A stretch of DNA of 64,000 bases from Mobula birostris (taxonomy: Eukaryota). Of this stretch, positions 8,427 through 64,000 are shown in pieces. The DNA is taken from assembly GCF_030028105.1 (NCBI RefSeq), contig NC_092383.1:87253921-87317920 (forward strand). The letters are read 5' to 3'. The first letter of the stretch is position 1, and every line of letters begins with the position of its first letter. Below the pieces are notes generated by a model. The model was not told the origin of the DNA, did not search any database, and saw only the letters and a program-made list of their open reading frames with translations. The translations under genes and the position numbers were made by a program.

Positions 8427-9832
8427 GTATGGACATTAAGTATAAAGTGTCTGAATGTTTCAGAATGTTTAGAAATTGGATTACATGGGAGTTTACAGAT
8501 CAGTCATCCCCACTAGTCCAGTCCAGTATTAATACTTTACACAAACCTACGAGCACTTCTTTCATTGAATCCCATCAGCATAACCTTCCAGTTATTTGTC
8601 CCTTTCTCTTATGCTTATCCACATTTTCCTTAAGTCTATCCATAATATTTTACTTGACTATTCTTCAGAGTGGCACCAGTCTTTATTATCATTACTGAAG
8701 GGTGAAGAGTGAGATTGGTCCTTTCTCTACTGTTAGAGATGGAGCATCTAATTGTGTAAATCTGTCTTTGGGTTCAATGACTTTTCAGTTTACATTTTGT
8801 ATATTCCTTCTGAGTCTCAAAGTCTGATGTGAAATCAGAAAAAAATAGGGCAGCTCTATTCAGAATAACAAATTGGGGATGACACGGTAGAATAGCGGTT
8901 AGCATAACGCTATTACAGCGCCAGTGACCTGGGTTCACTTCCGCTGCTGTCTGCAGGGTGGAGATTGTTGGAGGATTCTGCTCTGCCATACATTTTCTCT
9001 TGTTGGCATCACTTTAACTCCAAGATCTGTACCCTCAGAGAACTGTGTGTTCCTCTTGTGCATCCTCCAGTCTCTGAATCCCACCACCAATGTCAGTAGC
9101 TTCAGCTACCCAAAACCCACCCTCTGGACAACTCCATGAACTCCTGCAATTCTGTCCTCTTAACTTTTGTTCGTTAGGGATACAGCAGAGTAACCGGTCC
9201 TTCCAGTCCACTGACCAGCCAATTACACCCATGTGATCAATTAACCTACTACAACAAACCATTCTGACTGAAAACCATAAAAGTATTGTAATTTGCCCAA
9301 ATAATCTCCAACTTCATTTTCAACCTCTCCTCTCAGTGAACCCCTGTGAAACACCGAACGGCTTCATGTGTAGGTGCTGTAAAGCAACATGCTGTTGTTG
9401 CACAGTTAGTAGTCGGTCCTCACTAAGTATCACAGCTGTTATCAAACACTCTGGAAAATGAAATTCTACAAGCTGATTGAAAGGATCAGAGTTTATTTAA
9501 AAACAGAAAACTGAAGGTGATCTGGTAGTTGCCTGAAAGAGTATCAAATTGTTTTATTGAATAAAGAAGGTATTTTCACTTTCAGAGGAGAGTAGAACTT
9601 GAGATATAAACATAAGATGGTTTAAAAAAAATCATGAAATTACGACCATAGACCATATGGGATAGGATCAGAATTAGTTCATTTGGCCCATCAAGACTTC
9701 TCTGTCCTTCAATCACAGCTGATTTATTTTCCCTCTCACCTATTATTCTGCTTTCTCCCTGTAACTTTCACAGCCTCAACTTTCACATTCATCGGTCATA
9801 AAATAGATCTCGGATTTTATTTTTTATTTCAG

Positions 9833-10081
9833 GAAATGGCCACGTTGGAAGAAAATGTCGTTTCTACAGATCTACACCATGTTCGAAACAATGAGGCGGA
9901 TGCCCAGTCGGCCAAAAATGAAACTGGAATTGTGTATGCAGATGTGAAATTTAAAAGGAAATCAAGAGCAGTCCACTCCGTTACGGATGTGGACAACGTC
10001 ACCTATGCAAATATCAAATTTCAAACCCATTGTGCAAAGCCAAAACGAAAAGCTTTCTCTCCTCCTACTCCACAGGAATAG
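9833..10081 (+). CDS. Gene 1 terminal exon with two ITIMs (IVYADV, VTYANI)
   Basis: Acceptor ttttttatttcag|GAA, phase 0, inside ORF 9683..10081. Both motifs fit the ITIM consensus (S/I/V/L)xYxx(I/V/L). Stop is TAG. Confidence 0.88.
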   Translation, partial: EMATLEENVVSTDLHHVRNNEADAQSAKNETGIVYADVKFKRKSRAVHSVTDVDNVTYANIKFQTHCAKPKRKAFSPPTPQE

Positions 10082-21612: not shown

Positions 21613-22660
21613 AAACCCCACTGGTGTCCTTCATATCAGACACATACTTCTGATAAGTTTGCTGTAGTAGATCTTCCTCACTAGTCCCACAACAGAGGTC
21701 AACGGGAAACCTCGCTTCACGCCCAAATATCAGATAATACGGCAGGTACCCGGCAGCTTCGTTCTGTGTACAGTTGTAGCAGTGGACCAGACGTTCAGTA
21801 TGTTGACTCCACTTGTCCTTTTTAACTAATTTCCAAGGTTCCGAGCATGTCTAGCAAGATCCAATTGAGCCTCTCGTGCTGCGGATCACCCTGTGTGTGA
21901 TAAGGCTTAGTCCCTGACTTCTTAACTCCAAGTATGCTCAGTAACTCATGTATGAGCCTATTCTGTAAATCCTGTCCCTGATCACTATTTACAGTATTCG
22001 CCTGGGGAGGCCATAATAAAAGATACAATTCTCCCATAACACTTTGGCCATGGTGGACACCTTCTGATTCTTGGTAGGGAAGACTTGCGCAAATCCGGTG
22101 TAGTGATCGGTAATGACCAAGACATTCACATGTTGCTGGCACCAGGCTCTGTTGATAGGAAATCCATACACACCCGGTCACGTGACCCCGCACTCTGTAA
22201 GTGGGACAATGGAACGGCCCTCGTAGGCAGCATCTTCCGCCATGTGTATCGAATGCACGACTTGCTGTATTCATTGAACTCCGGCTTCATTTGGGGCCAG
22301 TAGGACTGATCTTTCAGCAATCCATAAGTCTTGTCAACCCTCAGATGACTGGAGTCATCATGCAGTGACTTCAACACAATCCTCACAATTCTCACGCAGA
22401 GCCGGCCGGGAATCCCAAGGCTTGTCTGGAGGCGATGTGACCCAGTAATCGAATCTGGTTCCTCAGCTCCAATCTGGGCCATCCACTCAGTAGCAGAGAG
22501 ATTCAGCTCGTCCACTTGGGCCATGGCCCCTTCCACAACTGCTGACCAGATGGTGCCCATGCATGGCTCATCTCTCTAAGCAGCTGCCACTTCCCCAGGA
22601 CTCAATTCCGGCAACTGCTTTGTCTTGAGAGCAGTCAGGATGCAGTAAGCCTGTGGAGTG
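21613..22660 (-). mobile_element. Gypsy integrase remnant (frameshifted)
   Basis: Zn-binding-like HDDSSHLRVDKTYGLLKDQSYWPQM and core motifs CMDFLS, NVLVITDHYT, FPTKNQK, YYGLPRR, SDQG, TKPYHTQGDPQHERLN are spread over several frames. Confidence 0.88.
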
Positions 22661-22679: not shown

Positions 22680-24836
22680 AAAGAACTACCACTGGATTCC
22701 GCCCTTGCCTTTCCTCTGCCTTCACCGTGATGGAAAACTGGCACATGGCTTTGACTCCTGGGGCAGGAATGCTCTCCTACTCTCTGTCCCTGTCCAGCTC
22801 TTCATGTGCACGTTGGGACAATGCATTGGCATTAATGATCAACCACGGTTGCATCCTTTTTCCACTCGAAAATTTCTTCTTTTTTGGAATATACCTGTCT
22901 TGCATATTCCTCATTTCTCGCATTAACTCCAGCCACTGCTGCTCTGCTGTCTTTCCCGCCAGTGTCTCTTTCCAGTCGACTTTGGCCAGTTCCTCTCTCA
23001 TGCCACTGTAATTTCCTTTACTCCGCTGAAATACCGACACATCAGATTTCAGCTTCTCTTTTTCTAATTTCACAGGGAACTCAATCATGTTATGATCACT
23101 GCCTCCTAAGGGTTCCTTCAGCTCAAACTCTCCATTCACCTCTGGTTCATTACACAATACCCAATCCAGTACAGCCTATCCCCTAGTAGGCTCAACAACA
23201 AGCTGTTCTAAAAAGCCATCTCGCAGACATTCTACAAATTCTCTCTCTTGAGATCCACTGCTGACCTGATTTTCCCAATCCACTCGCATGTTAAAATCCC
23301 CTACAATTATCATAACACTGCCCTTCTGACAAGCCTTTTCTATTTCCAGTTGTAATTTGTAGTCCACATCCCTGCAGCTGTTTGGAGGCCTGTACAGAAC
23401 TGCCATCAGGGTTCTTTTACCCCTGCGATTTCTTAGCTCAACCCAAAAACATTCTGCACCTTCCGATCCTATATCACCTCTTTCTAATGATTTAATATCA
23501 TTTCTTACCAATAAAGCTACGCCTCCCCCTCTGCCTACCTTCCTATCCTTCTGATACACCGTGTATCCTTGGACATTCAGCTCCCAGAGACATGCATCCT
23601 TTAGCCAGGTCTCAGTGATGGCCACAATATCATACCTGCCAATCTGTAGCTGTACAACAAGATCATCCACCTTATTCCTTATGCTGCGTGCATTTAAGTA
23701 CAACACCTTAAGACCAGTATTTGATACTTTTTGCTTTGATTTCACTGCAACTTTATTGCACTGCAACTCATCCCAATGGCTACAAATTTGCCCCATCACC
23801 TGCCTGTCTTTCCTGACATCTTTACTGCTCACTATCTTAGATTTATTTCTGTTTTCCCCTTCCTCCGCTCTATCATTCCGGTTCCCATCCCCCTGCCAAA
23901 TTAGTTTCAACCCTCCCTAACAGCTCTATTAAACTTTCCCGCCAGGATATTGGTCCCCTTCGGGTTCAGGTGTAACCTGTCCTTTTTGAACAGGTCATAC
24001 TTCCCCCAGAAAAGATCCCAATTATCCAAGAATCTGAAGCACTGCCCCCTACACCAGTCTCTCAGCCACGCATTCATCTGCCTGATCCGACTACTCTTGC
24101 CCTCGTTAGCACGTGGCACAGGTAGCAATCCCGAGATTACTACCCTGGAGGTCCTGCTTCTCAGCTTCCTTCCTAACTCCTGGAAATCTCTCTTCAGGAC
24201 CTCCTCCTTTGTCCTATCTATGTCAATGGTATCAACATGTACCAAGACAACTGGCTGCTCACCCTCCCCCTCTAGAATATTCAGGACCCGATCCGAGACA
24301 TCCCGTACCCTGGCACCTGGGAGGCAACACACCATGCGGGTATCTCTGTCAGGCTCACAGAATCTCCTGTCTGTTCCCCTGACTATGGAATCCCCTACGA
24401 CTACTGCATTTCTCTTCTCCCTCCTTCTCTCCTGCACAACAGCGCCAGGCTCAGTGCCAGAGACCCGGTCACCGTGGGCATCCCTGGTCAGGTCATCCCC
24501 CTCAACAGCATCCAGAACAAGATATTTGTTGCTGAGGGGGACAGCCACAGGGGTGCTCTCCAATATCCAGGCATTTCCCTTCCCTCTCTTGACAGTGACC
24601 CAGCTTTCTGACCCCTGTAGCCTAGGGATGACTATATCCCTGTAGCTCCTGTCTATCACCTCTTCACTTTCCCTGATAAGCAGTAGGTCATCAAGCTGCA
24701 GCTCCAGATCCCTAACAAGGTCTCTGAGGAGCTGCAACTCGGTGCACCTGGCGCAGATGCGGCCATCAGGGAGGCTGGAAGTCTCCCAGGATTCCCACAT
24801 CTGACACCCTGAACAAAGCACTAACCCTGCAGGCAT
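22680..24836 (-). mobile_element. CR1 LINE 5' half: ORF1 (Zn finger/coiled coil plus SGNH esterase-like domain) and APE endonuclease
   Basis: ORF1 runs from the ATG at 24836 to 23907 (CSGC...CARC, VVVGDSIV, LPGA, DRLHLN). ORF2 endonuclease reads LYLNARSIRNK...ITETWL...GRGGGVA...YRPPN...GDFN...GSDHNM, with a stop at 23176. Confidence 0.92.
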
Positions 24837-25989
24837 GCTATCAAATTCTACAGGAATGAAACAGGAAAAATAAGTGGTCATTGACATATAAAGTAAAAAT
24901 AACTGGTTCCAGCACAGATCATTATGGAACACTACTAGTCATCTTTCATTGGCTCCACTGTCAAGGTCTTGTTTAGATTGATCTTTGACTGGAACTTCCC
25001 CCTTGACCTTTCTGCCATGGAGGACCATACCGGATGGCATCGCTCCCAGGATGTCAGGAAATCACAAGCCTCTCCACCACCACAAGGTGATGATCCATGG
25101 AGAAGTGAGTAAGCGGTAGCATTCTGAAATGCTCTTCCTGAACAGTTGGTAGAGTCAGGAACCTTCAGCACAGTAAACTGAGCCTGGAAGGTGTATCTGA
25201 AGTGCTGTCACCTGCCGGGCAAAGGGCCCAGTGTTAGAGGGAGGACCAGAACATACAGCGCTTCTTCAACCAGTACTGAAGAAAGGGCTGAATGGCCTCT
25301 TAAGTCATAAGTTCTATGATCCTGCTCCAGGAGAACAGAAGTGGGACTGAATATTTCATTTTTTATTGACAGGAAATTCTGGTGACATATGTCAATGTCC
25401 GTTTTTGCCAAGAACAAAACCAGAATGTATGAAGACCCTAATGTTATTTTGGGATTCAACATTTTCTGTATATATAGTACATTCTCCTGCCCTCAAATTT
25501 CAGGTGAATAGAAATCAACTGCCCTCAATGACCACTCCCCTCACCCTGCTCCCCAAGAAGTAGACGGTGTCTCTTGTCTCCCTCAGTCCGCGGTCTCTCA
25601 CCATTCAGGGGAATACATGCACTGAATGTCCTTGGAAAAGTTGGGATCTGAGGAAGAAGCTGAGTAAAAAGCTGGGAGATACCGTTAGAAGCCACGCATT
25701 GAAGATGCAACTGTTCCGCGACAAGGGTATAAGCCAAACACTGGTGACTGCCAATCCTACTACCTTCTGACCACAAACAGGGGTGAATGTCTGATTGGTG
25801 TCTTTGTAAAGGGATGGATATTCACCAGCACAGCCAGGATATTCACTCTGAATATTGAAAAGATTTTGAGGATACAAAGGTCTGTGGACTCCAGAATTTG
25901 GAGTGACAAACTATCAGCTGGAGGAACTCGGTGGGTCAGGACTTCAGCATCTGTCAGGGGATGGGACGGCTGAGGTTATTGACCTGACA

Positions 25990-27400
25990 TAGGTTTCCGA
26001 CCTGAAACTGCAACAGATGTTGGCTGACCAACTGATTTCCTCCATTGCTTTGTGAGTTGCTCCAGAAAGTTGTTTGCGAAGCAGTTTCTTTTTGTCCACT
26101 CAAGAAATTTCGAGAGATTGAAAAAGTTAAAAGACATTTTCAATCTCTCATTGCTACAGCCAGAAATTCCCACTTGCTTCGAAAGGGCAACAATTTTACC
26201 AGTGCCCAAGAACACCAGTGTGAGCTGGCTGAATGATTATCGTCCAGTCGCACTCACATCTACGTGATGAAGTACTTTGAGAAGCTGGTCATGGCCAGAA
26301 TCAACTCCTGCCTCAGCCAGGACCTGCACCACAGCAATTTGCCTATTGCCACAATAGATCTATAGTGGATGCAATCTCATTGGCTGTCCATGCAGCCTTG
26401 AATCACCTGGACAATAAAATACCTATGTCAGCATACTATTTATTCACTATAGCTCAATGTTTAACACCGTCATTCCCACAGTGCTTTTTGAAGAGTTATA
26501 GAACCTGGGCTTCTGTACCTCCCTCTGCAAATGGAAGACCTCAATCTGGAAATAACAACTCCACCTCACTGACAATCGACAGTGGTTCACCTCAGGGACG
26601 TGTGGTTAGTTCGCTGCTCATGTTCTCTCTACACCCGTGACAGAGTGGCTAGGCACAGCTCAAATGTCATCTATAAATTTGCTGACGATACACCCATTGT
26701 TGGCAGAATATCAGGTGGAAATGAGAGGGTGTGCAGGAGTAGATATACCAGCAAGTGGAGAGGTGTTGTGGCAACATCCTTGCACTCACTGATTGTGGCC
26801 TTGAGAAAAGCTAAGAGGAGGGTACACACACCGTAGGGGGATTGGAAGTGTAGAGAGTGAGCAATTTCATGTTACTGGGCATTAGTATCTCTGAGGACGT
26901 AATCTGACCCCAGCAAATTGATGCAGCTGTGAAGAAGGCAAGACAGTGGCTGTATTTAATTAGGATTTTGAGAAGAATTGGTATGTCACCTAAATATCTA
27001 CATATGTACTGTGGAGAGCATTCTGACTGGCTGCGTCACTGTCTGGTATTTGGGCATGTGGGCCGGGGGTGGGGGGGGGGGGGCGGGAGGGAACGCTGAT
27101 ACTGTACAGCATCAAAGTAAGCTGCAGAAAGTTGTCAAATTAGTCAGACCCATCACGGATACTCGACTCCACAGTTTACAAGACATCCTCAAGAAGCAGT
27201 GCCTCAAAAAGGAACTCTGCCACCCAGGACATGCCTTCTTGTCATTGTTACCTTCAGGAAGGAGGTACAGAAGCCTGAAAGCATGCATTCAGAATTTCAG
27301 AAACAGCTTCGTCCCCTCTGCATCCAATTTCTGAATGGACATTGAACCCAAGAACACCTTGTCACTTATTTTTAATTCTGTTTTTTCACTGCATATTTAA
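25990..27400 (+). mobile_element. Rex1/Babar-type non-LTR retrotransposon (decayed RT and 3' end)
   Basis: Motifs [46 protein letters not shown] and CTVESILTGC...HPGHAFLSLLPSGRRYRS. Confidence 0.85.
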
Positions 27401-27559
27401 TCTAACTATTCAATATATATAAATACTGCAATGGACAGTTTTTTTTTGTTCGATATTATCCTGTATTGCATTGTAGTACTGCCACAAATTAACAAATTTC
27501 ACAACATGTGCTGTTGATATTACACCTGATTCTGATTTACGGAAACATGTTCTCTTCAG

Positions 27560-27880
27560 TTTCAGGTGCATTGTGGGCAGAGAAAAATGTAACAGGAGTT
27601 GTGGGAAGAACAATCACAATCGATTGTCACTATGAAGCAAAGTACAGCTCACACACAAAGTATTGGTGCCATGGATGGAGTCGTCATTGTTCAGTTTTAG
27701 TGGAAACAAATGAGCATCACGGACAGCGTGGACGAGTATCAATCACAGATAACCCGGAACGGAGGATATTTACTGTTACAATGAAGGATCTTCGCTCTGA
27801 AGATACAGGATGGTACAGCTGTGCAATTACAACATCAGGTTATGACCCAATGGTTAACATACATCTGCAAGTGTCTGACG
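27560..27880 (+). CDS. Gene 2 V-type Ig exon V1
   Basis: tctcttcag|...GAC G|gtatgt, 321 nt, phase 1-1. Encodes VSGALWAEKNVTGVVGRTITIDCHY...KYWCHGWSRHC...EDTGWYSCAI...HLQVSD. Confidence 0.92.
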
Positions 27881-28296
27881 GTATGTAACGCAGTGATGGA
27901 CTTTATGTCTCTATTGAAATGTCTGATCCAAGTTTTCTCTAGGAACGGCCATGGTATCATTGATATCCCCGAGGCTCCGCAGTAGTGTAGAGTCCTACTA
28001 GGAATACACAGCAGTCAAGAAACCCAATTCATGTTGATCTCACCCAATTCATGGTCATGGTCCAATGTTCCGCCTGTATCTTCAAGAATCTGATGGTACA
28101 TTTATCAGGGCTTTACTTTCTGTTCCCCACTAAAATATCTTCTTTGTCTTCACTGCGAAGGGTCAGGACAGTTCCGATATCCCGAGGGTCTACATCCCCT
28201 CTGCCATCCGATTTCTGAACTGACAGTGAACCCATGAACACTTTGTCACATATTTTTGTTTCTGTTTTTTCACTGCATATTTAATCTAACTACTTA

Positions 28297-28340
<44 letters not shown>
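28297..28340. repeat. (TA)n microsatellite; related tracts at ~29858-29885 and (CA)n at ~31405-31447
   Basis: Read directly from the sequence; each abuts the left TIR of a mariner-derived element. Confidence 0.95.
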
Positions 28341-28343
<3 letters not shown>

Positions 28344-28345
<2 letters not shown>

Positions 28346-28978
28346 AGGGTTGATTGATAAGTTTGTGGCCTAAGGTAGAAGGACCCAATTGTAGAAAACT
28401 TAGCACATTTATTTTGCAACATAGTTCCCTCCTACATTTACACACTTAGTCCAGCGGTCGTGGAGCATACGGATCCCTTCTTTGTAGAAGTTGGCATCTT
28501 GGACCTCCAGAAAGTGGCCCACAGCAGGGGTGATTGATACGTTTGTGGCCTAAGGTAGGAGATGAGTTATTAACTTCAAACCTTCTGCATTTTCACTCAA
28601 AGAGTTGAACTGCACGTGCATGTAACGAGAGCTGTATAACTCATCTCCTTCTACCTTAGGCCACGAACTTATCAATCACCCCTGCTGTGGACCACCTGGA
28701 GGTCCAAGACATTCTCGTTACATGCACGTGCAGTTCAACTCTTTGACTGATAATGCAGAATGTTTGAAGTTAGTAACTCATCTCCTTCTACCTCAGGCCA
28801 CAAACTTATCAATCACCACTGGTGTGAACCACTTCTACAAAGAAGGGATGCGTATGCTCCACGACTGCTGGACTAAGTGTGTACATGTAGAAGGGGACTA
28901 TGTTGAAAAATAAATGTACTAGGTTTTCTAAAACTGACTCCTTCTACCTTAGGCCACAAACTTATCAATTATCCCTCG
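28344..28978. mobile_element. Fold-back mariner-derived non-autonomous element, copy 1
   Basis: TIRs gggttgattgataagtttgtggcctaaggtagaagga / tccttctaccttaggccacaaacttatcaattatccctcg, inserted in a TA tract. Both arms carry the mariner transposase C-terminus (FYKEGMRMLHDCWTKCVHVEGDYVEK*) in opposite orientations, and there are internal TIR copies. Confidence 0.85.
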
Positions 28979-29120
28979 TATATTATTAATGCAATGGATA
29001 GTTTTTTGTTCTGTATTATCCTGTATTGCATTGTAGTACTGCCACAAAGTTAACAAATTTCACAACATGTGCTGTTGATATTACACCTGATTCTGATTTA
29101 CGGAAACATGTTCTCCTCAG

Positions 29121-29441
29121 TTTCAGGTGCATTGTGGGCAGAGAAAAATGTAACAGGAGTTGTGGGAAGAGCGATCACAATCGATTGTCACTATGAAGCA
29201 AAGTACAGCTCACACACAAAGTATTGGTGCCATGGATGGAGTCGTCATTGTTCAGTTTTAGTGGAAACAAATGGGCATCACGGACAGCGTGGACGAGTAT
29301 CAATCACAGATAACCCGGAACGGAGGATATTTACCGTTACAATGAAGGATCTTCGCTCTGAAGATACAGGATGGTACAGCTGTGCAATTACAACATCAGG
29401 TTATGACCCAATGGTTAACATACATCTGCAAGTGTCTGACG
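29121..29441 (+). CDS. Gene 2 V-type Ig exon V2
   Basis: Intact splice sites, 321 nt. Four nt differ from V1 (T>A, E>G, two silent). Confidence 0.9.
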
Positions 29442-29890
29442 GTATGTAACGCAGTGATTGACTTTATGTCTCTATTGAAATGTCTGATCCAAGTTTTCTC
29501 TAGGAACGGCCAGGGTATCATTGATATCCCCGAGGCTCTGCAGTAGTGTAGAGTCCTACTAGGAATACACAGCAGTCAAGAAACCCAACTCATGTTGATC
29601 TCACCCAATTCATGGTCATGGTCCAATGTTCCACCTGTATCTTCAAGAATCTGATGGTACATTTATCAGGGCTTTACTTTCTGTTCTCCACTAAAATACC
29701 TTCTGTGTCTTCATTGCGAAGGGTCAGGACAGTTCCGATATCCCGAGGGTCTACATCCCCTCTGCCATCCGATTTCTGAACTGACAGTGAACCCATGAAC
29801 ACTTTGTCACATATTTTTGTTTCTGTTTTTTCACTGCATATTTAATCTAACTACTTAATATATATATATACATATATATATATACACACA

Positions 29891-30525
29891 CAAGGGTTGA
29901 TTGATAAGTTTGTGGCCTAAGGTAGAAGGACCCAATTGTAGAAAACTTAGCACATTTATTTTGCAACATAGTTCCCTTCTACATTAACACACTTAGTCCA
30001 GCGGTCATGGAGCATACGGATCCCTTCTTTGTAGAAGTTGGCGTCTTGGACCTCCAGAAAGTGGCCCACAGCAGGGGTGATTGATACGTTTGTGGCCTAA
30101 GGTAGGAGATGAGTTATTAACTTCAAACCTTCTGCATTTTCACTCAAAGAGTTGAACTTCACATGCATGTAACGAGAGCTGTATAACTCATCTCCTTCTA
30201 CCTTAGGCCACGAATTTATCAATCACCCCTGCTGTGGACCACCTGGAGGTCCAAGACACTCTAGTTACATGCACGTGCAGTGCAACTCTTTGAGTGATAA
30301 TGCAGAATGTTTGAAGTTAATAACTCATCTCCTTCTACCTCAGGCCACAAACTTATCAATCACCATTGGTGTGAACCACTCCTACAAAGAAGGGATGCGT
30401 ATGCTCCACAACTGCTGGACTAAGTGTGTACATGTAGAAAGGGACTATGTTGAAAAATAAATGTACTAGGTTTTCTAAAACTGACTCCTTCTACCTTAGG
30501 CCACAAACTTATCAATCATCTCTCG
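29891..30525. mobile_element. Fold-back mariner-derived element, copy 2
   Basis: Near-identical to copy 1, at the same position in the repeat unit. Confidence 0.85.
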
Positions 30526-30666
30526 TATATTATTAATGCAATGGACAGTTTTTTGTTCGATATTATCCTGTATTGCATTGTAGTACTGCCACAAATTAAC
30601 AAATTTCACAACATGTGCTGTTGATATTACACCTGATTCTGATTTACGGAAACATGTTCTCCTCAG

Positions 30667-30987
30667 TTTCAGGTGCATTGTGGGCAGAGAAAAATGTAAC
30701 AGGAGTTGTGGGAAGAGCGATCACAATCGATTGTCACTATGAAGCAAAGTACAGCTCACACACAAAGTATTGGTGCCATGGATGGAGTCGTCATTGTTCA
30801 GTTTTAGTGGAAACAAATGGGCATCACGGACAGCGTGGACGAGTATCAATCACAGATAACCCGGAACGGAGGATATTTACTGTTACAATGGTGGATCTTC
30901 GCTCTGAAGATACAGGATGGTACAGCTGTGCAATTACAACATCAGGTTATGACCCAATGGTTAACATACATCTGCAAGTGTCTGACG
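30667..30987 (+). CDS. Gene 2 V-type Ig exon V3
   Basis: Intact splice sites, 321 nt. Three nt differ from V2 (K>V by a 2-nt change, one silent). Confidence 0.9.
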
Positions 30988-31396
30988 GTATGTAACGCAG
31001 TGATTGACTTTATGTCTCTATTGAAATGTCTGATCCAAGTTTTGTCTAGGAACGGACAGTGTATCATTGATATCCCCGAGGCGCCGCAGTAGTGCAGAGT
31101 CCTACTAGGAATACACAGCAGTCAAGAAACCCAACTTATGTTGATCTCACCCAATTCATGGTCATGGTCCAATGTTCCGCCTGTATCTTCAAGAATCTGA
31201 TGGTACATTTATCAGGGCTTTACTTTCTGTTCCCCACTAAAATACCTTCTGTGTCTTCACTGCGAAGGGTCAGGACAGTTCCGATATCCCGAGGGTCTAC
31301 ATCCCCTCTGCCATCCGATTTCTGAACTGACAGTGAACCCATGAACACTTTGTCACATATTTTTGTTTCTGTTTTTTCACTGCATATTTAATCTAT

Positions 31397-31446
<50 letters not shown>

Positions 31447-31451
<5 letters not shown>

Positions 31452-31927
31452 AGTGATTGATAAGTTTGTGGCCCGAGGTAGAAGGAGTCAATTTTAGAAA
31501 ACCTAGCACATTTATTTTTCAACATCGTCTCCTCCTACATTTACACACTTAGTCCAGCAGTTGTGGAGCATAGGATCCCTTCTTTATAGAAGTCGGTGTC
31601 TTGGACCTCCAGAAAGTGGCCCACAGCAGGGGTGATTGATACGTTTGTGGCCTAGGGTAGAAGGAGATGAGTTATTAACTTCAAACCTTCTGTATTATCA
31701 CTCAAAGAGTTGAACTGCACTTGCATGTAACGAGAGCTGTATAACTCATCTCCTTCTACCTTAGGCCACAAACTTATCAATCACCCCTGCTGTGGACCAC
31801 CTGGAGGTCCAAGACGCTCTCATTAGATGCACGTGCAGTTCAACTCTTTGACTGATAACGTGGAAAGTTTGAAGTTAATAACTCATCTCCTTCTACCTCA
31901 GGCCATGAAATTATCAATCAGCCCTCG
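31447..31927. mobile_element. Fold-back mariner-derived element, copy 3 (shorter, more diverged)
   Basis: Same TIRs and left arm; the right-arm transposase segment is missing. Confidence 0.8.
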
Positions 31928-32068
31928 TGTATAAATACTGCAATGGACAGTTTTTGGTTCTATATTATCCTGTATTGCATTGTAGTACTGCCACAAATTA
32001 ACAAATTTCACAACATGTGCTGTTGATATTACACCTGATTCTGATTTACGGAAACATGTTCTCTTCAG

Positions 32069-32389
32069 TTTCAGGTGCATTGTGGGCAGAGAAAAATGTA
32101 ACAGGAGTTGTGGGAAGAGCGATCACAATCCATTGTCACTATGAAGCAAAGTACCGCTCACATACAAAGTATTGGTGCCATGGATGGAGTCGTCATTGTT
32201 CAGTTTTAGTGGAAACAAATGGGCATCACGGACAGCGTGGACGAGTATCAATCACAGATAACCCGGAACGGAGGATATTTACTGTTACAATGGTGGATCT
32301 TCGCTCTGAAGATACAGGATGGTACAGCTGTGCAATTACAACATCAGGTTATGATCCAATGTTTAACATACATCTGCAAGTGTCTGACG
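32069..32389 (+). CDS. Gene 2 V-type Ig exon V4
   Basis: Intact splice sites, 321 nt. Five nt differ from V3 (D>H, S>R, V>F, two silent). Confidence 0.9.
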
Positions 32390-34568
32390 GTATGTTGCGC
32401 AGTGACTGATTTTATGTCTCCTCTGAAATGTCTGATCCAAGTTTTCTCTGGGAATGTTCAGGGTAGCATTGATATCCTGAGGCTCAGCAACAGGGCAGAG
32501 CCTTACGATGAGCTGTCAGGAGTCAGGAAACCCAATTCATGTTGATCTCACCCAATTCATGGTCACTGTCCAATGTTCCGCCTATATCTACAGGAATCTG
32601 TTGGTACATTTACCACGGATTTACTTTCTGCCCCCACATAAATATCTGCTCTGTGTCTTCACTGTGAAGGGTTACGACAACTCCCACATCCCGAGGGACC
32701 ACTGCAGTGCAGAGTCTTGTGAGGAGTGAACAGGAATCAGGGAATCACCCAGTGTGAGGTCTGACCCACTGATAGACACCGACTTCTATTGGGAGGCTCA
32801 GCACAATTTTCCTGCCTCAGAAGCATATGGAATGTCACCCTATCAGAGGTTTGCATTCAGAGTAAAACTAATAATCCAGCCATAACAGAGCAGTGAGAAT
32901 CCTGTTGCTCATGGGCTAAGTACCGGAAAACCATAAAAAGGGAATCATTTCCCAGAGCTCAACAGACTGCATTCAGTTCTTCCAAAGCAGGCCAGTCCAA
33001 TCCCTGGCCTATCTCAGGGATCAATCAGTCCCTCCTAACCCCCACCCCCCCACCTGTATCCCCATAAATGTGTTCTGAGCCCCCACCCCCAGAACCCACT
33101 GACCATCCACTCTGAAACATCCAGCCTCTTCATCCACCCATTACCGGCAGGAATCAGATTAAGTGAAATCTGATGAGATCTTGTCCCATCAGAATCCTTT
33201 TGTTTTCCTTTATCCATCTTGCCCTTTTACTCCTTGTCATTCCCCTCCACTGCCCTTGTGCCCACACTTTCTCCCTCTGGTGCCCCACCTACTTATTCTA
33301 TTCCATAGTCTACTGTCCTCTCCAAATAGATTCCTCCTTCTTTAACCCTTTGCCTCTTCCGCCTATCACCTCCCAATTTATCATACTCTTTTTTGCCCCA
33401 TCCCACCTTCCTGCCTTCCTCCTCTCACCTAGATTCACCTATCAGCTGTCAGCTTATGCTCCTCCTCCTCTCCCCACCCTTTTATTCAATCCTCTCCCCT
33501 CATTCTTTCCAGTCCTGGTGAAGCATCTCAGTCAGAAACATCACACGTGCATTTTCCTCCAGAGATGTTGCCTGACCTGCTGAGTTCCTCCAGCTCCTTT
33601 GTGTGAACATCCACCTTCCTGAGACTTCTGGGCTTCGCCCACTGCCTCCATGCAAACAGCAGCACCAAGGTACTCCTTTGCTGTAGCAGGTCCCAGAAAT
33701 CAAACACTTTCTCCCAAAACCCTCCAAGCATGTGACAGATATCTGACCATCAGAGCAAATACTGGCAATCTCACTGGCAGAAAGAGGTATAGCAACTAAA
33801 CAAATAGTTAATCACTTTTGTCATTTTTCATTGGCTAAGATTTAGCACATTACCCACATGGTAATTGTTTTAATTATCAATTAATTAATCACTATCTAAG
33901 AAATTTTCTTTATCTCATCTATAAAAGTGATGGATTTTTCAGAAGCACTATGTTTCATTTCTTTTTATTCCTTTGCATTACATCCTTTAGCATTGATTTC
34001 CCTTTAGCATCATTTCTCAGCTCTTTATTTACGTTTGTAGATTGATGAATATTTGTATGTTTTTTTACTCTAAATTAAGCAGAAATCTTTGAACTAAGAC
34101 TGCTCACACTGAAGTGGATCACTTCACATTTGTCTACAGAATGATGCATCTGCCATTCATTTGCTAATTCTCTGAACCAGTCCAAATCATGCTTAAGAAA
34201 CTCCTCATAGTACACATTGTCACCCGGCTTTGTGCCCTCTGCAAACTTGATATATTGCATTTAATTCCTCTGGACTATGTTATTAATATACAATGAGATG
34301 AGTTGGGTTTCTAACACTGAATGCAACAGTTTCCCTCTAAAAACTCACTGCCAGTCAAAAGCAGAGCTCTTCATTCCTGCTGTTTGAATTCTGTCTGCCA
34401 ACTGGTTCTCTATCCATATTAGTCCTCTAATCCACCTGTTTTAATCTGACATGTGTAGGACCTTATCAAATGCTTTCTGGAAATCCAAACACACAACCTG
34501 CTGTCATTATTCTGCAAGCTATCTTCTCATCTACTTGCACAGGGAAGCTGTTGAAACTGGATTTTATC

Positions 34569-45300: not shown

Positions 45301-48135
45301 GAAATCAAAAACAACATGCAAAAAATGCTGGAGCAACTTAGCAGGTCAGGCAGCATCTGTGGAAATGCATAGATAGTCGAGGTTCGGGGCCTGCCTGTTA
45401 CTTTCCCCTGGGATGCCTCCTCCTTCCCTTTCTCCAATGTCCACTCTACTCTCCTCTTAGATTCCTTCTCCAGCCCTTGATCTTTCCCACCGACCTTGTT
45501 TCACCTATCACCTTCCAGACAGCCTCCTTCCCCTCGCCATCTTTTTTTTCAGACATATTCCCCCTTCCTTCTCAGTCCTGAAGAAGGGTCTTGGTCCAAA
45601 ATGTCAACAAACTATTTGTTTTCATCGATGCTGCCTGACCTGCTGATTTCCTCCAGCGTTTTCTGTGTGCCACTTTGGATTTCCAGTGTCTGCTGATTTT
45701 CTCATGTTTATGATAAAATCAAGGTTGAACAATTAACATTTTTTAGATAAACTTCAAGATGGCACCGATAAACGATGACTCTGTGAACAGAGAATGGGAA
45801 TCATATGGGAATCATAGAATATTCCCGTTTTGGGCTGCTACAGTATGCTGGTGATTTAAAACTGATTCTGTTTCTGATTCTGTATAACTTCCCCAGTATG
45901 TGCGGCATGTGAGAATCAGTATCCCTTGTACTGAAACTTACCACAGACTTCATCTGCCCCAGGCATGAATCTGGATGGATCACACTTTGACTAACATGAA
46001 AGTTCCAACTGGATGAACAGGGATGTTGGGAAATTAGCAACTGAGAAGCTGAGCAAAGGTTCACAGGGTCAAGGGTCAGGGAGACCATGGGGGTGAGATA
46101 GTTAAGACAGAAATGTCTTCTCTTTGGACAAGTGTGATCTGTCCATTTACTGTGCCCTACGATTCTATGAGAAATAGAGCGTGCAGGACCTTTCTACTCA
46201 GACCCACCACTTTCTGTCAACATGGAGTTGATTTGGTTTAGGAACAGATCTGACATCGAGTTTACCCATTGCGGATGAGTCATTCCATTCAGGAGGTTTT
46301 CTCCTCACATCAAACCAAAGCAAAGTGAAATCCCATCAAAGGTCTTGAAATTGCACTGACAGATGGAATAGATTTCAGAAGAGGTGAGCTTTAGAGGTTC
46401 CTTCAAAGAGCGGACACAGCTTTCAGAGAGGAGAGGGAATGAAGTGAAGTACTGTATGATGAGTTTGCATGAAAAGCCCCTTCTACATCACACCTATTTC
46501 TTATTTTGCTCCTTTCTCAGTAGCAAGTTCCCCAAAACAGATTTAATTTAATTTTCACCAAGGCAGATCCAGAACAATGTACAAATCTTGGAGTGTAATT
46601 CCATAACTCCCTGAAATTTGGAACAGAGTGAGATGGTAAAGTAGGTGGTGAAGAGAGCTTATGGGATTGGGCCAGCATTGAGCATTCAGGAATTCATGTT
46701 GCAAATGTATAAAAATATGGTTAGGATACACTTGGGGCAGGTGTGCAGTTGTGTCTGTGAGTGCCAGAGAGCACTGGATATTTGCATAATCAGTGTTGGT
46801 TTTGGGGTCTTACACCATTTATAGAACAGTGCCTGAATATGGGTAGACACTAAAGATGTTGAAATCTGGAGTTCAGAGTACACTCCTGAAGGACATCAGT
46901 GTGCCAAGCGGCATGTGTCAGGGGGAGGGAAATTGTTGATGGTTTGGGTGGAGACCCTGCATCAAGTGTGAATGGAGAGGGAGATAGTGTAAATAGGAGA
47001 GGGGGAGGTGTGGGACTGAGTCTACTAGGTGGTAGGGGGTTGAGGAGGGGTGAAGAATGAAATGGAATGGGAGGAAAAGGGATGGAGTTTGGAGGTGAGT
47101 GAGAGGTGGAAGCAGATAAGGGGGATAGTGTGGAACCAGGTCGGGGGAGAATATGTCCAGGTGGAGAAAATTCCTGGAAGCTGTTAAGCGGAATATCAGG
47201 TCCACCATTGCTGGAATCTGATCTTTTTCTGCAGGGATCAGCGTGACAATTGACGTTGTTGTCTTCAAATCAGTACCTTTCCTGGGCCATTTCAGTGGGG
47301 TAATTAGTAAAGAACGTTACTCGATCTGGAGTCAAAGGTAAACCAGGGTGGGTATGGATGAGAGATTTCTGTCTCTAAAGGCCTTTCTGATCCAGGTGGG
47401 ATTTTGACACTCTGGTAGTTAATCATTCTCATGATTGATATGTGTTTTTTAATTCCAGAAGTAATTTAGAAACTGTATTAAAACACTCAATGTATCCTTA
47501 CAGAAATTGAAATCACACCTGGGTTTCTAGACACTAAAATGGAAATTACTTCTGTTGCACCACCTTCTAACTACACATAGAAATACCTGACAGGTACAAA
47601 ATATAAAATCTGCATCAGAAACAGAGGGCACAGATACAGACATCCTCAGGGATTTCTTTCTGCAGTTTATAAACTTGTCTGTGAGGAGGAAGCCAGGACA
47701 TTGGCCTGAAGTGGTCCTACCAAGCCCCACCTCAACCCTCATGTTCCCTGGAATCCGAGACACACACACACCTGGGATCATCATAAGTGAAATAGCTGGT
47801 ATCTTTCTGTACATTTCAAAGGCTGACATGATCTAAGGTAATTGAAAATTCAATGAGACCGCATTCCCTCAGTACTGCACTGGAAGATCAGTCCTGGGTT
47901 TCTGCTCAGGACTCTGGAGTGGGAAGTGAACCCACAATGTACTGACACAGGGGAGAGAGCACTGACACAGCTGACACAGTAACAGTACTGACAGCACTTC
48001 AGACCAAAATGATTGGCTGTGGTGTCATGGACGACATGTTGGAAGTGGCCGGGACGTGTTTTTACCATTGTGTTCAAAGTTATTTGCTTGGATGAAGTGT
48101 TCCTATCCCCTCAGATCTGAAAATGCCTCCCTCAG

Positions 48136-48454
48136 TTTCAGGTGCATTTTGGGCAGAGAGAGATTTAAAAAGAGCTGTGGGAAGAGTGAACAAGATCGAT
48201 TGTCACTATGAAGAAACATAATGCTCACACACCAAGTATCAGTGCCATGGATGGAATAAACAAGTTCAGTTTTAGTGGAAACAAATAGCAACACAGACAA
48301 AGAGAAAGAGTGTCAATCACAGACAACCAGGAACAGAGAAAATTTACTGTTACTATGGAAGATCTTTGCTTTGGAGATACAGGATGGTACAGCTGTGGAA
48401 CTACAACACAAGGACTCAATCTGAGAGTTCATTTATGTCTACACATATACAATG
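48136..48454 (+). pseudogene. Pseudo V exon (paralogue of the gene 2 V exons)
   Basis: ctccctcag|TTTCAGGTGCATTTTGG...AATG|gtaggt. It is 319 nt (two 1-nt deletions), has an in-frame TAA after CHYEET, and KYWC is changed to KYQC. DTGWYSC is retained. Confidence 0.9.
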
Positions 48455-48831
48455 GTAGGTTTTTCAGTGATTGACTTTGTGCCTTTAATGAAATAAGTAT
48501 CTCCTCCATGTTTCCTCTGGGAAGGGTCAGAGCATTAGATGTCACAGGATGCGACGATGTGCTGATCCCAGGGTGAAGCTTGTTGAATGGAGAAATGTCC
48601 AACTTGTGGATGTGTCTAAGGAACAGCAGTCTCCTTCTCCTCCTGCTCAGCCTCAGGACAGAGTACAAGATTTCTGTCCAGACTCTGTCCATCCCTAACT
48701 ATCTCTGCATAAACATCAGTGCCAAATGTTTCCCTCTCTATGTCAGGTGACTGAACCCAGTCACAATTTTATTTTCTACTCAAAGCTATCAAACGTGTGA
48801 TGGATATTTCACAAATATGCTGCCTTTAAAC

Positions 48832-59175: not shown

Positions 59176-60835
59176 CCTCATTTCTTTTGTTTGGCCCGAG
59201 CAACAACTGAACCTCTTGACTATGTCTGCATGCTTCTATGAACTGTTTGTCACTAAGGAAATATTGCCTGAAAAACCTGTTGGAATTTTTTGAGGAAATT
59301 CAAGGCAGGACAGACAAAGGAGAGTCAGTGGATAATGTTTACTTGAATGTTGTGAAGGCCTTTGACAAGGGTGCCACACGTGAGGCTGCTTAACAAGATA
59401 AGAACCCATGTTACTGCTGGAAAGACTATGGCTGACTGTCAGGCGGCAAAGACTGGTAATAAAGAGAACCTTTCTGTTTGCCTATCAGTGACTCGTCGTG
59501 TTCTGCACGTGTTGGGACTGCATGATGGAATGGCGGAGCAGACTCTAAGGGTTGAATGGTCTAATTCTGCCCTCCTGTATTATGGTCCCTTTGTCTTATG
59601 GTCATCATTAGCTTTAGGATTTCCTGGGCAGACCTTGTATATTAGAAACGGCTGAAATTCGAGTTTCTGGTTGCTGATTAAAATACCTCATTCACTCAGA
59701 GATATGAGAAAGGAATCCATTGCTTCTCTTTGCATCTGTGTTCAGGAATGATCAAGGCTGCTGCATTTCATGATTGTGTACAGGATAACAGATCTTCAAA
59801 ATCCATGGAAAACACTGCAGGAATGCCTGTCGTAGGTGAGGAGCAGGTCAGTGTTCAGCTTGCTACTCCATGAGCCTTACTCATTACTGTGCTGAACCGA
59901 GGTTGTGGCCTGTAACTAACGGGCTCCTGAATGGGTTGCGGTGATGACTGTTTTTGTGTCTGTGACTCACCTTTGCGAATTTAAGTTCTGAATGTAATTT
60001 GCTTACTTTTATGGTTTGCATGGTTTTTTTCTGAACATTTGTGTTTGACGGTCTTTTTTACTGAGTTCTATTTCATTTTTTTTGTTTTGTGGCTGCCTAT
60101 AGAGAGACAAATCTCAAGGTTGTATATAATATATATACTTTGATAATAAATGTAGTTTGAATTTTTAAATTGAAGTTCAATCTGATTGGCTGTGATTCCA
60201 TAATCTGACTCATCTATGCAATGAAATAGAATTCTGAATTTAACTTTTCAGCAATGTGTTCCAGTTTAGAGAGGATGCTGCAGAGTTATTAGTTGTGGAT
60301 ACAGGAGCTTCACCCCAAATCATCCATGCTGACCACAGTGTCTTCCTGAGCTTCTCCCATTTCCCTGCATTTGGCTGGTATCCTTCTGAAGCTGTTTTGT
60401 ACAAGAACTTGTCCGAATGTATTTTAAATAGTGAATTTGTAACCACTTCCAGCACTTCCTCTGGCAGCCTTTTCCATGTACACACTGCTCTGTGTGCAAA
60501 ACACTGCCCCTCCAGACCCTCTAAGACCTTCCCCTCTCGCCTCAAGCCAAGGCTCTCGGATTATTGACTCCCTTGCCCTGGGATAAAGACTGCGACCATC
60601 CACCATAGTTCTGTCCCTCTTAATTTTTAACCCTCTATCAGGTCACCCCTCAGCTGTGTTCACTTCATTACTGTGTTCTTTATCTTTTCAGTACTTTTTT
60701 GCTGCACCAGATTCAGAGTAAAAATTATTTCGCTCTGCTTTCCTCTTATGTTTAGGGAATGATATTATACAATCTGGAATCTGCTTGTGTAAATTTGATT
60801 TTACCTGTCCATTTTCTGAAGAACTTCTCCCTCAG

Positions 60836-61155
60836 TTTCAGGTGCTATATGGGCAGAAGATAAAGTAAGAGGAGTTTTGAGAAGAATGATCACAATCGAT
60901 TGTCACTATGCACCAGTGTACCGTTCACACACAAAGTATTTGTGCCGCATGTGGGGTCATCAATGCACACTGTTAGTGAATACAAATGAGCAAAATGAGC
61001 AGTATGAAAGAGTAACAATCAGAGATAACGCATATTTACTGTTACTTTGGAGAGCCTTCTCTCTCAAGATTCAGGACTTTGCAGTTGTGTAATTAGAACA
61101 GCCGGCAATTACTCAGAGTTTGACGTGCATCTACAAGTACATCTCCATGTCCTGG
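60836..61155 (+). pseudogene. Pseudo V exon (more diverged paralogue)
   Basis: cttctccctcag|TTTCAGGTGCTATATGG; reads ITIDCHYAPVYRSHTKYLC...QC. About 10 nt are deleted after GATAAC, causing a frameshift. W>L and Y>C changes hit Ig core positions. Confidence 0.88.
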
Positions 61156-61524
61156 GTGACATGTTCCTTGCACTGTGTCCACTTCCTCCAATGAAATTTC
61201 AGTATCATAAAGGCACCTCTGAACTTCTAACTTCTCTATTTTTCCTGAATCCATTTTCACTGTGTAGTTTCTAATTCAAAGAACTCATTTGTAAGAGATT
61301 AAGTTACAGTGATTATGTGCCTGTAACTGATGATCACAGGTTGTTCCCCTTCCCCCATCCCGTCATTCAGTCAACACCAGTTGACTCTTCCAGTTGAACT
61401 CTGGCTCTGCTTACTTAGCTCATCCACTCCACCAAGATTACAGAGGAAACAGGAGGTAAATATTTCAAACTCAAAGCCATATCGTTTTGTCTCATTAATT
61501 CTGTATCTCTTCCCCTTTACTCAG

Positions 61525-61615
61525 TTTCATGATAGGGAAGGTTGGTCATTGGCTGCTCTTCACTCTGCTGGTGATCTGCACTATTTCAGTCACATGGTTC
61601 ACAAGGGAAACTAAG
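61525..61615 (+). pseudogene. Paralogous TM exon (FMIGKVGHWLLFTLLVICTISVTWFTRETK), frame still open, Arg>His
   Basis: Splice sites intact (tttactcag| and AAG|gtaggc). Lies 370 nt after the frameshifted V exon, with no stalk exon recognised between them. Confidence 0.8.
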
Positions 61616-62764
61616 GTAGGCTTCTGGACATCAGTGGAATTTGCTTTCAAATATACTCATCATTTGAGGAGAGACATTTAAATACATTGACCTTTTCTTA
61701 TCCAATAGTCAATCCAAAACTATTTGCAGATGATATTCACAAGATGTCGACACACTGTATGTGTGCAGAATGCTTGATGTGAATATATTGGAGTCTAAAA
61801 ACTCTAGATACAACTCTAAAGCAGAGTTCCCAATGTCAATGGGTCTGATGATTGACCGTTGCCTTTTGTGAGGATGTATCAGGTCCTCACAAACTGGTCC
61901 ATTAGGTAAAGTGAAGGCTTCTGACTGCTGGAATTTTGCGCCAAGATAAAATATTCATACTCCTTCCCACTTTATGCAAGGGATTTATCATTTGTGAAGT
62001 TAACCACTCTTGTCATTAAATTGTTAACTTCATGAAGGTGAAAAAATAATGTTACCATTCTTCAAGAGAGTGATTTATTTTTAGCATTCTGTTTCCAACA
62101 TGTCTCAATATTGTGGCACTTCTTATTTGTTGCCACAGCAACTATTTTTAACCCTGTCACAGCTGTGAACTGCTTAAGACGATTTTACTCTATTAAACTC
62201 TCTTCTATGGATTTAAATGCCAGAGGTCGTTGTGTCTTCCAATAATTAATAAGCAGTCAGTTAAAATACTTGTTTATAAACTGCTGAAGTTAATAAGTCA
62301 TTTATCCAGTTGGTTTAGTTGAGAATGAAACTTTATACATGACGAACAGATCACATTCAGGTTCCTGGATTTTATTGATGCAGTCAGGATCATAAGACCA
62401 TAAGCACAGGAGCGGGATTAGGTCATTCAGCTGTTTCAGTTCCACAAAATGAGTTTACACAGCTTTTCAAATATTCCAAGCTGAAGCCTCCAGTTAGTCA
62501 ACTAAGAACTTATCCAGGAGAAAAAGTAATTCCTGTGAGAATGGCATTTGTAACTGAGAAATACAACAACAAGAAGCCACATTGAGCTTTTATGTGGTAA
62601 GAACAGAAGGGCCAGCATCGTGGGGACATGTTTGGCTGAGACAACTACTAATTGACTGGAAATCCATTCACTACTTCGCATGCCATAGCCCCTGCAATGA
62701 AGTTAACTGGAAACAAACTTAAAACAGTACTGGATGATGCCACAACTGTCTCCACACAGAACAG

Positions 62765-63362
62765 CATGAACCACTGCTAAATGGACCACTGCTAACAGGT
62801 GTCGGTCCCAACCTCTGTACTTCTGGTTGGAAAGCATATTGGATAAGGAAGGACCATGCTGTTCAGTAGTGTGAAAGTGATGAAAACACTGGTCTGACAA
62901 TAACAGTTTTTGTGGGCAACATATCAGAGAATGCTTCTGGCATGTTAGTAGTCAGGCGGTTATTTGTGAAATATGGTTTGGTTTTAAAATAGAAGACAGT
63001 TCCAGGAGCTTCAGGAAAGTTGCAAGCATATGGCTCTTGTGAGAATAAAGAACCAGAATCTACTGTGTGTGCATTATACTTATTGCATGAACTTCAAGTG
63101 AGAGACAAAAAGCTGCTTGTAAAAGTAGATGCAATGACCAAGGCCCAGCTGGATTAATAGAAGGTCAAAAGGAAAGGAGTCAATGGAGAGTCAAAAGCAG
63201 AGGATTCATCAGATGATGATGTGGATGAGAAAACCAAGAGGACAGATCAGGTTGTAATGGGAGAAACAGAAGGATTAATAAGAGAATACTCCAATTAACT
63301 AACTGCACCTTCCCAACATCAAGATACATAAACTAGAAGGAGAAAAGGGAAGGAGAAGAAAA
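62765..63362 (+). pseudogene. RBM25: Intronless RBM25 fragment (processed retrocopy, RRM region)
   Basis: Translation TVFVGNISENASGMLVVRRLFVKYGLVLK*KTVPGASGKLQAYGSCENKEPESTVCALYLLHELQVRDKKLLVKVDAMTKAQLD**K...DEKTKRTDQ...LIREYSN*LTAPSQ matches vertebrate RBM25 (TVFVGNISEKASDMLIRQLLAKCGLVLSWKRVQGASGKLQAFGFCEYKEPESTLRALRLLHDLQIGEKKLLVKVDAKTKAQLDEWK, recalled from memory). Multiple stops are present. Confidence 0.9.
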
Positions 63363-63674
63363 ATGTCCAGAGCTGTCAGAACCACTTTCTGCGGTCTTAA
63401 AGTCAGCTCCTACAACCACCATGGACAAGGCCCCAGAACCTGAGATAGTTTCACAGCCACAAGTATTAACTGCCAGGCGGAGTGATCCTACTGGTCAGGA
63501 AAGATGTTGTCCCACAGGAGTAGGAAATCCTCCACAGCAATTAAATCATTAGGCCTGAATGAGACAAATTAAAATTTACTATGCTGTGGATGTCTGCAAA
63601 TAGTAGCTGCATGATATATTATACTTTGTATATAGTTGATATGCATACTATATTGAGTTGCAAGCAGGGAGAAG

Positions 63675-63978
63675 TGTTGTGTATTTCATATTTTAGTAAT
63701 ATTTGAATAATATTATATATATTGTACATATATTCTTGTTTTTTTAAATAATTAAATACGGTTTATAAGTAAAAGACTTAATTTGCATATGCCATGACAT
63801 TACCATGTGATATGTGCACACATTATCGTCGTCGTCTGAACCCTTAATGCCTATGTGACACATGGGGTCTCACGTGCACACATCACTTAAAGTAAAAACA
63901 CAAACTAAGATTTACATTTCTCGGCTCTGTTGTTTTCCTTTGAATTATTTTACTGTTTTGGAGCTACAAACCATAACA
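63675..63978 (+). mobile_element. 3' LTR of the Gypsy remnant
   Basis: TG...CA ends with an imperfect terminal inverted repeat TGTTGTG/CATAACA, directly after a PPT. Confidence 0.7.
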
Positions 63979-64000
63979 AGGACCTTTCATCAAACACAGT

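Follow-up and report, generated by a model that had tools for sequence, protein, structure and literature searches.

A mechanism of LTR-mediated retroposition in animals has been described by Tan et al. (2016, Genome Res 26:1663; PMC5131818). That paper assigns 18 insertion sites to nine young fly retrocopies, of which two occupy more than one, alongside five of seven zebrafish cases, and the Gypsy element BLASTOPIA is reported to have returned in every instance at a single A-rich position close to an exon-exon junction. Host mRNA fragments inside an LTR element are further represented by maize Bs1 and human HERV-K/FAM8A1, both as cited in the same paper. Among crocodilian ERVs, gene capture has yielded CrocERV29, with KIT-ligand, and CrocERV31, with nectin3 (PMC4299795); the portion of that study dealing with them counts 9 copies whose ORF is intact and 6 insertions, reports purifying selection, and describes env as replaced or nothing as lost.

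Here, we describe a locus close to the end of the window (the whole 64,000-nucleotide stretch of DNA that was analysed) that is an old, decayed, and 5′-truncated copy of a jumping gene, in which a stretch of the host's splicing gene RBM25, devoid of introns, stands where the copying enzymes would be (Table 1). We put at roughly 85 per cent the probability that it belongs to a non-autonomous Gypsy-type family in which RBM25 took the place of the RT, RNase H, and integrase region in one template-switch capture and which then spread widely, the two flanks being putatively of one family. The mechanism is known; for an amplified family that carries RBM25, no report was found in the literature searched, repeat databases (Repbase, Dfam), subscription journals, and preprint supplements lying outside the scope of that search.

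Table 1. Features of the chimeric element and its junctions, in window coordinates.
Feature	Position	Strand	Remarks
Common interspersed-repeat tail remnant, ~40 nt	62390..62429	-	Weak local alignment; depth rises
Retroelement aspartic-protease remnant and linker	62427..62738	+	5′-truncated; interrupted by stops
Probable captured, spliced RBM25 mRNA fragment	62739..63361	+	tblastn with P0202 residues 12-49 and 51-221
Alternative RBM25 segment	62748..62798	+	In P0128, P0201, and P0202
15-nt tandem duplication	62766..62795	+	93% match; inside the alternative segment
Open 66-codon tail, ending in a stop	63352..63552	+	Out of frame with RBM25
9-nt overlap of RBM25 and retroelement tail	63353..63361	+	Last three matched RBM25 codons
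Polypurine tract	63662..63674	+	Uninterrupted purine run 63666-63674
3′ LTR, 304 bp	63675..63978	+	TG...CA, 4-base inverted ends

The carrier is likely a Gypsy-type LTR retrotransposon, a label based on a sub-cutoff Pfam match of a relative and on anatomy. Its 5′ flank, which an initial annotation made from the letters alone had assigned to the end of a Gypsy protease, shares 53 per cent identity over 62427-62576 with the unnamed protein P0127, which itself matches Pfam gag-asp_proteas at E 7e-4, short of the curated cutoff. (The top match of the protease-side search, P0126, is a Diplonema cysteine-rich repeat protein and was rejected as spurious, leaving one of two matches.) Protease side and tail lie on one strand and in the expected order, and the pol core is replaced rather than interrupted: the protease remnant ends before 62739, the tail begins at 63353, and there is neither a pol-core ORF between or near the two nor space for one, so the RT, RNase H, and integrase are missing just as the initial annotation had it. 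The polypurine tract and the TG...CA LTR of that annotation also stand, but its label ‘pol C-terminal’ for the tail gained no Pfam match and no usable Atlas match. From its position before the polypurine tract and LTR, the tail is a putative C-terminus of pol. A search of Rfam over 60000-64000 returned 0 matches.

No second copy of the LTR occurs in the window, and the truncated 5′ end of the element adjoins the repeat-tail remnant; together, these two observations indicate that this copy has lost its 5′ LTR and gag, which had not been noted before. The remnant, presumably the tail of a LINE or SINE, is weak, with local-alignment scores of 38-39 at three other sites in the window as compared with 37 for the best of 20 shuffles. 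The search for a full-length parent yielded 0 of 102 candidates in a word-seeded protein search with the protease-side frame, 0 metagenome contigs and 0 viral contigs for a 21-base pattern from the tail, and, via P0127, 5 (viral) and 112 (metagenome contigs) pattern matches, none of which was confirmed.

The window is AT-rich vertebrate DNA rich in LINE-type remnants. Its host is likely a cartilaginous fish, given that the best protein relative of the RBM25 piece comes from the shark Heptranchias perlo. On its reverse strand, at 22126-22575 and 23176-24938, an integrase zinc-binding remnant (Pfam Integrase_H2C2, E 2e-10) lies beside LINE-type esterase/endonuclease frames; in a self-comparison of the window, this remnant has no similarity to 62001-64000. 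V-set immunoglobulin exons form a tandem cluster (27312-32697, 48120-48456, and 60829-61139), which looks like a CD300/pIgR-like receptor cluster. Four of these exons are near-identical (95-98 per cent amino-acid identity to the first) in units of ~1.4-1.56 kb, and two further copies, the last of them at 60829-61139, are broken and more distant. Within 28343-31930, the tandem units include inverted repeats of considerable length, with ~90 per cent complementarity between arms of up to 149 nt, and, nested in them, a hairpin of 60 nt; the structure may be a miniature inverted-repeat element that was copied along with the exon. At 9638-10081 there is an open frame with a terminal stretch in which two ITIM-like tyrosine motifs can be seen by eye; it has no Pfam match.

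The cargo, 623 nt in length, is, judged from its sequence, a decayed and intron-free fragment of RBM25. With shark-type proteins as queries, tblastn aligned 62846-63361 in a single gap-poor HSP at 65-69 per cent identity and added a second, frame-shifted HSP at 62739-62843 (55 per cent, E 4e-4); the frame breaks near 62843-62846, and six stops interrupt the main RBM25 frame. No further RBM25 pieces were found in the window. The frame 62765-63364, with X at stops, was compared by phmmer with 516 longer candidates, 191 of which matched (best E 5e-52), and with near-length candidates, where 73 of 123 matched and the best was the RBM25-like protein XP_067833824.1 of Heptranchias perlo (69 per cent, E 1e-61). 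Among the 120 matches listed, those with a name were RBM25, the others being unnamed or hypothetical proteins with RRM, and mostly also PWI, Pfam domains. Applied to the decayed frames themselves, Pfam gave RRM_1 at E 0.012, a spurious match at E 0.11, and nothing else; a search of the PDB gave one weak match to PABP. The initial annotation had recognised an intron-free piece of the RRM region of RBM25, and these matches agree with it. Its extent, put at 62765-63362, needs correction at the start, the likeness beginning at 62739.

Exon borders were inferred from the starts, ends, and inserts of 194 aligned homologues, in the numbering of P0202 (an unnamed protein of the Heptranchias cluster), rather than from the host gene. 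Ten homologues start at residues 34/35, five start and nine have inserts at 110/111, ten end at residue 164, and five end and 26 have inserts at residue 223. The cargo crosses inferred borders without an intron at ~62798, 63025, and 63188; with three borders read through, an origin from a single exon was rejected, and the spanning of exon junctions foreseen in the initial annotation holds. At its 3′ end, the cargo stops at residue 221 of P0202, two codons before the fourth inferred border, whereas full-length homologues have ~800-850 amino acids.

Near its 5′ end, the cargo contains a segment that sits between two constitutive exons and is used alternatively: three fetched proteins carry it (P0202 and two Heptranchias models), and its exact 20 residues are absent in 120 of the 194 homologues. 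Just before it, at 62739-62747, are three codons that match the end of the upstream exon. The match to these three preceding residues and to part of the segment places the start of the cargo at ~62739 and its origin in an alternatively spliced isoform. At the position of the shark-type segment, the teleost RBM25 isoform P0144 also has an insert, with three residues in common, and the shared insert position hints at a conserved cassette exon.

Copies of the element were sought in public runs, 20 of 24 of which hold part of the stretch. Contigs of four of the 24 were aligned at 80 per cent likeness, namely X3 and X4 (both organism A), X7 (organism B), and X17 (organism D), with 10648, 152, 11555, and 11651 aligned contigs, respectively; organisms C, E, F, and G contribute small shares and fall outside these four runs. 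In X3, 74 contigs with unrelated loose ends (agreement 0.36) begin exactly at 63675, as is expected of the edge of an LTR at many insertion sites.

At the 3′ junction, 74, 9, 78, and 79 contigs (X3, X4, X7, and X17; best 24 of 3601 rows) begin fitting at 63353, and their letters upstream of that position are mutually similar (agreement 0.69-0.78); we read these shared other letters as the parent element continuing. A fit from 63353 onwards, together with RBM25 codons that match up to 63361, gives the 9-nt overlap, its host side being defined at the protein level only. This overlap is the likely 3′ template-switch site, close to the inferred exon end, and it provides the microhomology that the initial annotation had suspected there. 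Contigs of a second class, in which the upstream letters differ, break off at 63354 (at least 74 in X3 and at least 89 in X7). To the eye, they resemble a further internal derivative of the element. The position is a candidate recombination hotspot, and a break so close to the RBM25 junction suggests that the element has reused one return site.

The surroundings of the cargo are also informative as to what is absent. No A-run of six or more occurs in 62400-64000, and the sole 6-mer common to the surroundings of both RBM25 ends sits off the junctions, so that neither a poly(A) nor a TSD was found; a copy decayed by stops and devoid of poly(A) is what the initial annotation had described. An independent LINE insertion at this site was rejected, there being no poly(A), no TSD, and no mRNA 3′ end. 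A more elaborate course of events, in which a LINE-made RBM25 retrocopy landed in a resident Gypsy, its poly(A) and the pol core were deleted, and an LTR family arose by amplification of the result, strikes us as improbable. LINE remnants are frequent in the window, deletions, too, leave microhomology, and a 2026 preprint, where it treats the origin of non-mammalian retrocopies, ascribes them mainly to CR1/Tx1 LINEs; however, such a course calls for extra events that left no trace and for a fragment that ends ~600 codons ahead of the RBM25 stop without poly(A) or TSD, and the contig class at 63354 is suggestive of repeated switching by the element at that point.

The 5′ junction bears on a further explanation. 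RBM25 starts in the same frame as the protease match, with stops between both in the studied copy, and the shared frame suggests that the junction was in frame in the founder. A tandem duplication of ~15 nt, which the initial annotation had placed at this junction, does exist but is not a junction feature: RBM25 likeness starts ~26 nt further 5′, and the duplication therefore lies inside the cargo. Depth drops to near single-locus level at 62786, where other contigs show different, shorter letters, and three different X3 contigs (best 12 of 75 rows) connect both sides of 62745-62824 with other letters; the low depth and the differing letters indicate that the duplication is probably particular to this locus. 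At the other end, RBM25 and the tail are in different frames, and continuation in the RBM25 frame meets a stop at 63398-63400, 12 codons past the 3′ junction. Both junctions lie within ~3 codons of inferred exon borders, as they might if, in the style of retroviral oncogenes, an upstream element had been read through and spliced onto RBM25 exons, with a template switch at the 3′ junction only. We give this account little credence because the 5′ junction is not an exon start, the three upstream-exon codons (part of which may be microhomology) preceding the alternative segment.

LINE insertion followed by trimming and read-through followed by splicing are thus possible readings that either call for additional assumptions or put the 5′ junction in the wrong place. 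Template-switch capture, on the other hand, agrees with a chimera on one strand, a replaced pol core, spanned exon borders, the lack of poly(A) and TSD, and the 9-nt overlap at the 3′ junction. The initial annotation had opted for such a capture by a non-autonomous LTR element over a LINE retrocopy, and all tests run support that choice.

The existence of other copies of the chimera, raised there as a question, can be answered in the affirmative: they form an amplified family, with diverged contigs bridging the same 3′ junction. At 16 listed sites in 63003-63267, the contigs with a letter other than that of the window number at least 95-126 per site in X3, at least 89-127 in X7, and at least 97-126 in X17; the corresponding numbers are 22-47 at 5 listed sites in 62844-62958 and 0-6 at 10 listed sites in the flank (counts per site, capped at 128, from the best 40 of 420 rows). 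With so many differing contigs per cargo site, a single host gene cannot be the source. Summed depth over the cargo amounts to 77-4200 times single-locus depth (medians 920-1315), over the tail to 1500-4800 times, over the protease side to 200-1000 times (median 340-610 times), and over the flank to 2-14 times; the protease side being below the cargo, many cargo copies may be without it. We estimate that the cargo likely exists in hundreds to thousands of copies in each of three related species, a figure that is an estimate because summed depth does not equal copy number and that refers to RBM25-like copies, not LTR-bounded ones.

These contigs are mostly short pieces rather than whole elements, and the majority are <90 per cent alike (6313 of 10648 aligned contigs in X3). 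At 21 of 21 listed cargo sites (best-supported rows), 64-98 per cent of X3 depth is one letter unlike that of the window, and one majority letter unlike the window is what private decay of copies descended from one founder would produce. The 3′ junction is bridged, with at least 31 letters on each side, by three diverged records among 32 listed of 34838: record 20 of X4 (114 differences in 628), record 23 of X4, and record 30 of X7. The two X4 records are ~82-84 per cent identical to the studied copy and run through the junction into the tail and beyond; record 7 of X17 falls below the 31-letter bar at the 3′ side. Bridging of the 5′ junction by paralogues is weaker, and record 2 of X17 may be an orthologue. 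It is very hard to credit that the RBM25-like contigs come instead from tandem or segmental amplification or from some other carrier, with the chimera a one-off, since the uneven cargo depth (3,555 to 160,205 in X3) and contigs too short for whole elements would permit this, but diverged copies bridge an identical 3′ junction, most contigs differ as in an old dispersed family, and the flank is near single copy.

The family also predates the species concerned. Record 26 of X7 (organism B) joins the unique flank, the protease side, and the 5′ junction with 17 differences in ~630, and record 1 of X17 (organism D) joins the flank and the start of the element with 20 differences in ~290; because the insertion is common to organism B, and its 5′ end to organism D, the family is older than the species splits. 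In X4, guessed to be an RNA run, records 17, 18, and 22 comprise contigs identical to 62642-63131 and 63105-63675 at a depth of 4-6 and a contig at a depth of 408, ~86 per cent alike, that is possibly host mRNA. The identical contigs and the deeper one could be putative transcription of the locus and host mRNA, respectively, or DNA.

For the capture itself, we infer co-packaging, two template switches, and mobilisation by a helper from the precedent of Tan et al. An alternatively spliced RBM25 mRNA would have been co-packaged in the particle, and during minus-strand synthesis the enzyme would have left the element at the A-rich 9-nt overlap near the exon end, copied ~620 nt of the RBM25 mRNA, and rejoined the element just past the protease. 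Both LTRs, the primer site, the packaging region, and the polypurine tract would have remained in the product, and helper mobilisation would be possible with these retained; the enzymes of intact relatives could then have spread the chimera widely. The studied copy would subsequently have shed its 5′ half, acquired the 15-nt duplication, and undergone neutral decay.

Whether the cargo was more than a passenger is a separate matter, and we think it unlikely that RBM25 helped the family to spread and was under selection. A 5′ junction in one frame and a stop shortly past the 3′ junction mean that a founder encoding a Gag-protease-RRM fusion, comparable to gag-onc, is conceivable; alternatively, RBM25 exons could have made the RNA of the element look host-like. 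Were the cargo to aid spread, a cartilaginous-fish Gypsy lineage able to reuse its return site would act as a repeated gene-capture engine, and such an engine would explain why genes like SUDS3 top the published list of cartilaginous-fish retrocopies.

That list comes from the 2026 preprint, which, in the part concerned, credits LINEs for non-mammalian retrocopies, places SUDS3 among the top retrocopy parents of cartilaginous fishes, and interprets the unusual genes that head the parental list in these fishes as selective filtering; the linked retrocopy pipeline, as far as its description goes, discards candidates that are at least 40 per cent repeat-masked. LTR-borne cargo that has been re-amplified is a testable alternative to the selective-filtering reading. 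Because of such copies, exons of the host RBM25 gene could also end up masked by repeat libraries. The vertebrate captures compared here are, in the accounts given of them, a matter of a handful of copies, whereas at this locus a cassette of host exons has become a common repeat across several species, and this repeat offers a large natural sample in which to ask whether captured cargo is neutral or selected during spread.

Set against known systems, the locus is most like the cases in the sections of Tan et al. cited above (PMC5131818): a doubly truncated mRNA replaces internal ORFs, microsimilarity marks the 3′ switch point, poly(A) and TSD are lacking, and the product was probably re-mobilised although non-autonomous. 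As with BLASTOPIA, the switch site is A-rich, here two codons before an inferred exon end. Unlike those cases, as they are presented there, the cargo here is an old repeat, for which each of three organisms has ~100 or more distinct contigs at a site, and the species set of that paper, in the sections that set it out, comprises no cartilaginous fish. Like the crocodilian ERVs, as portrayed in the relevant portion of PMC4299795, it is an old vertebrate LTR element that gained host mRNA, multiplied, and is common to several species; those elements, however, are retroviruses, whereas the present one is Gypsy-type, has its pol core replaced, survives here as a dead copy, and was amplified on what is apparently a far larger scale. 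Bs1 and HERV-K/FAM8A1, as they are cited, concern other hosts and other classes of elements. The features of a LINE-made processed pseudogene, namely an mRNA 3′ end, a poly(A), and a TSD, are absent from the chimera, which in its structure stands with the products of LTR-mediated retroposition.
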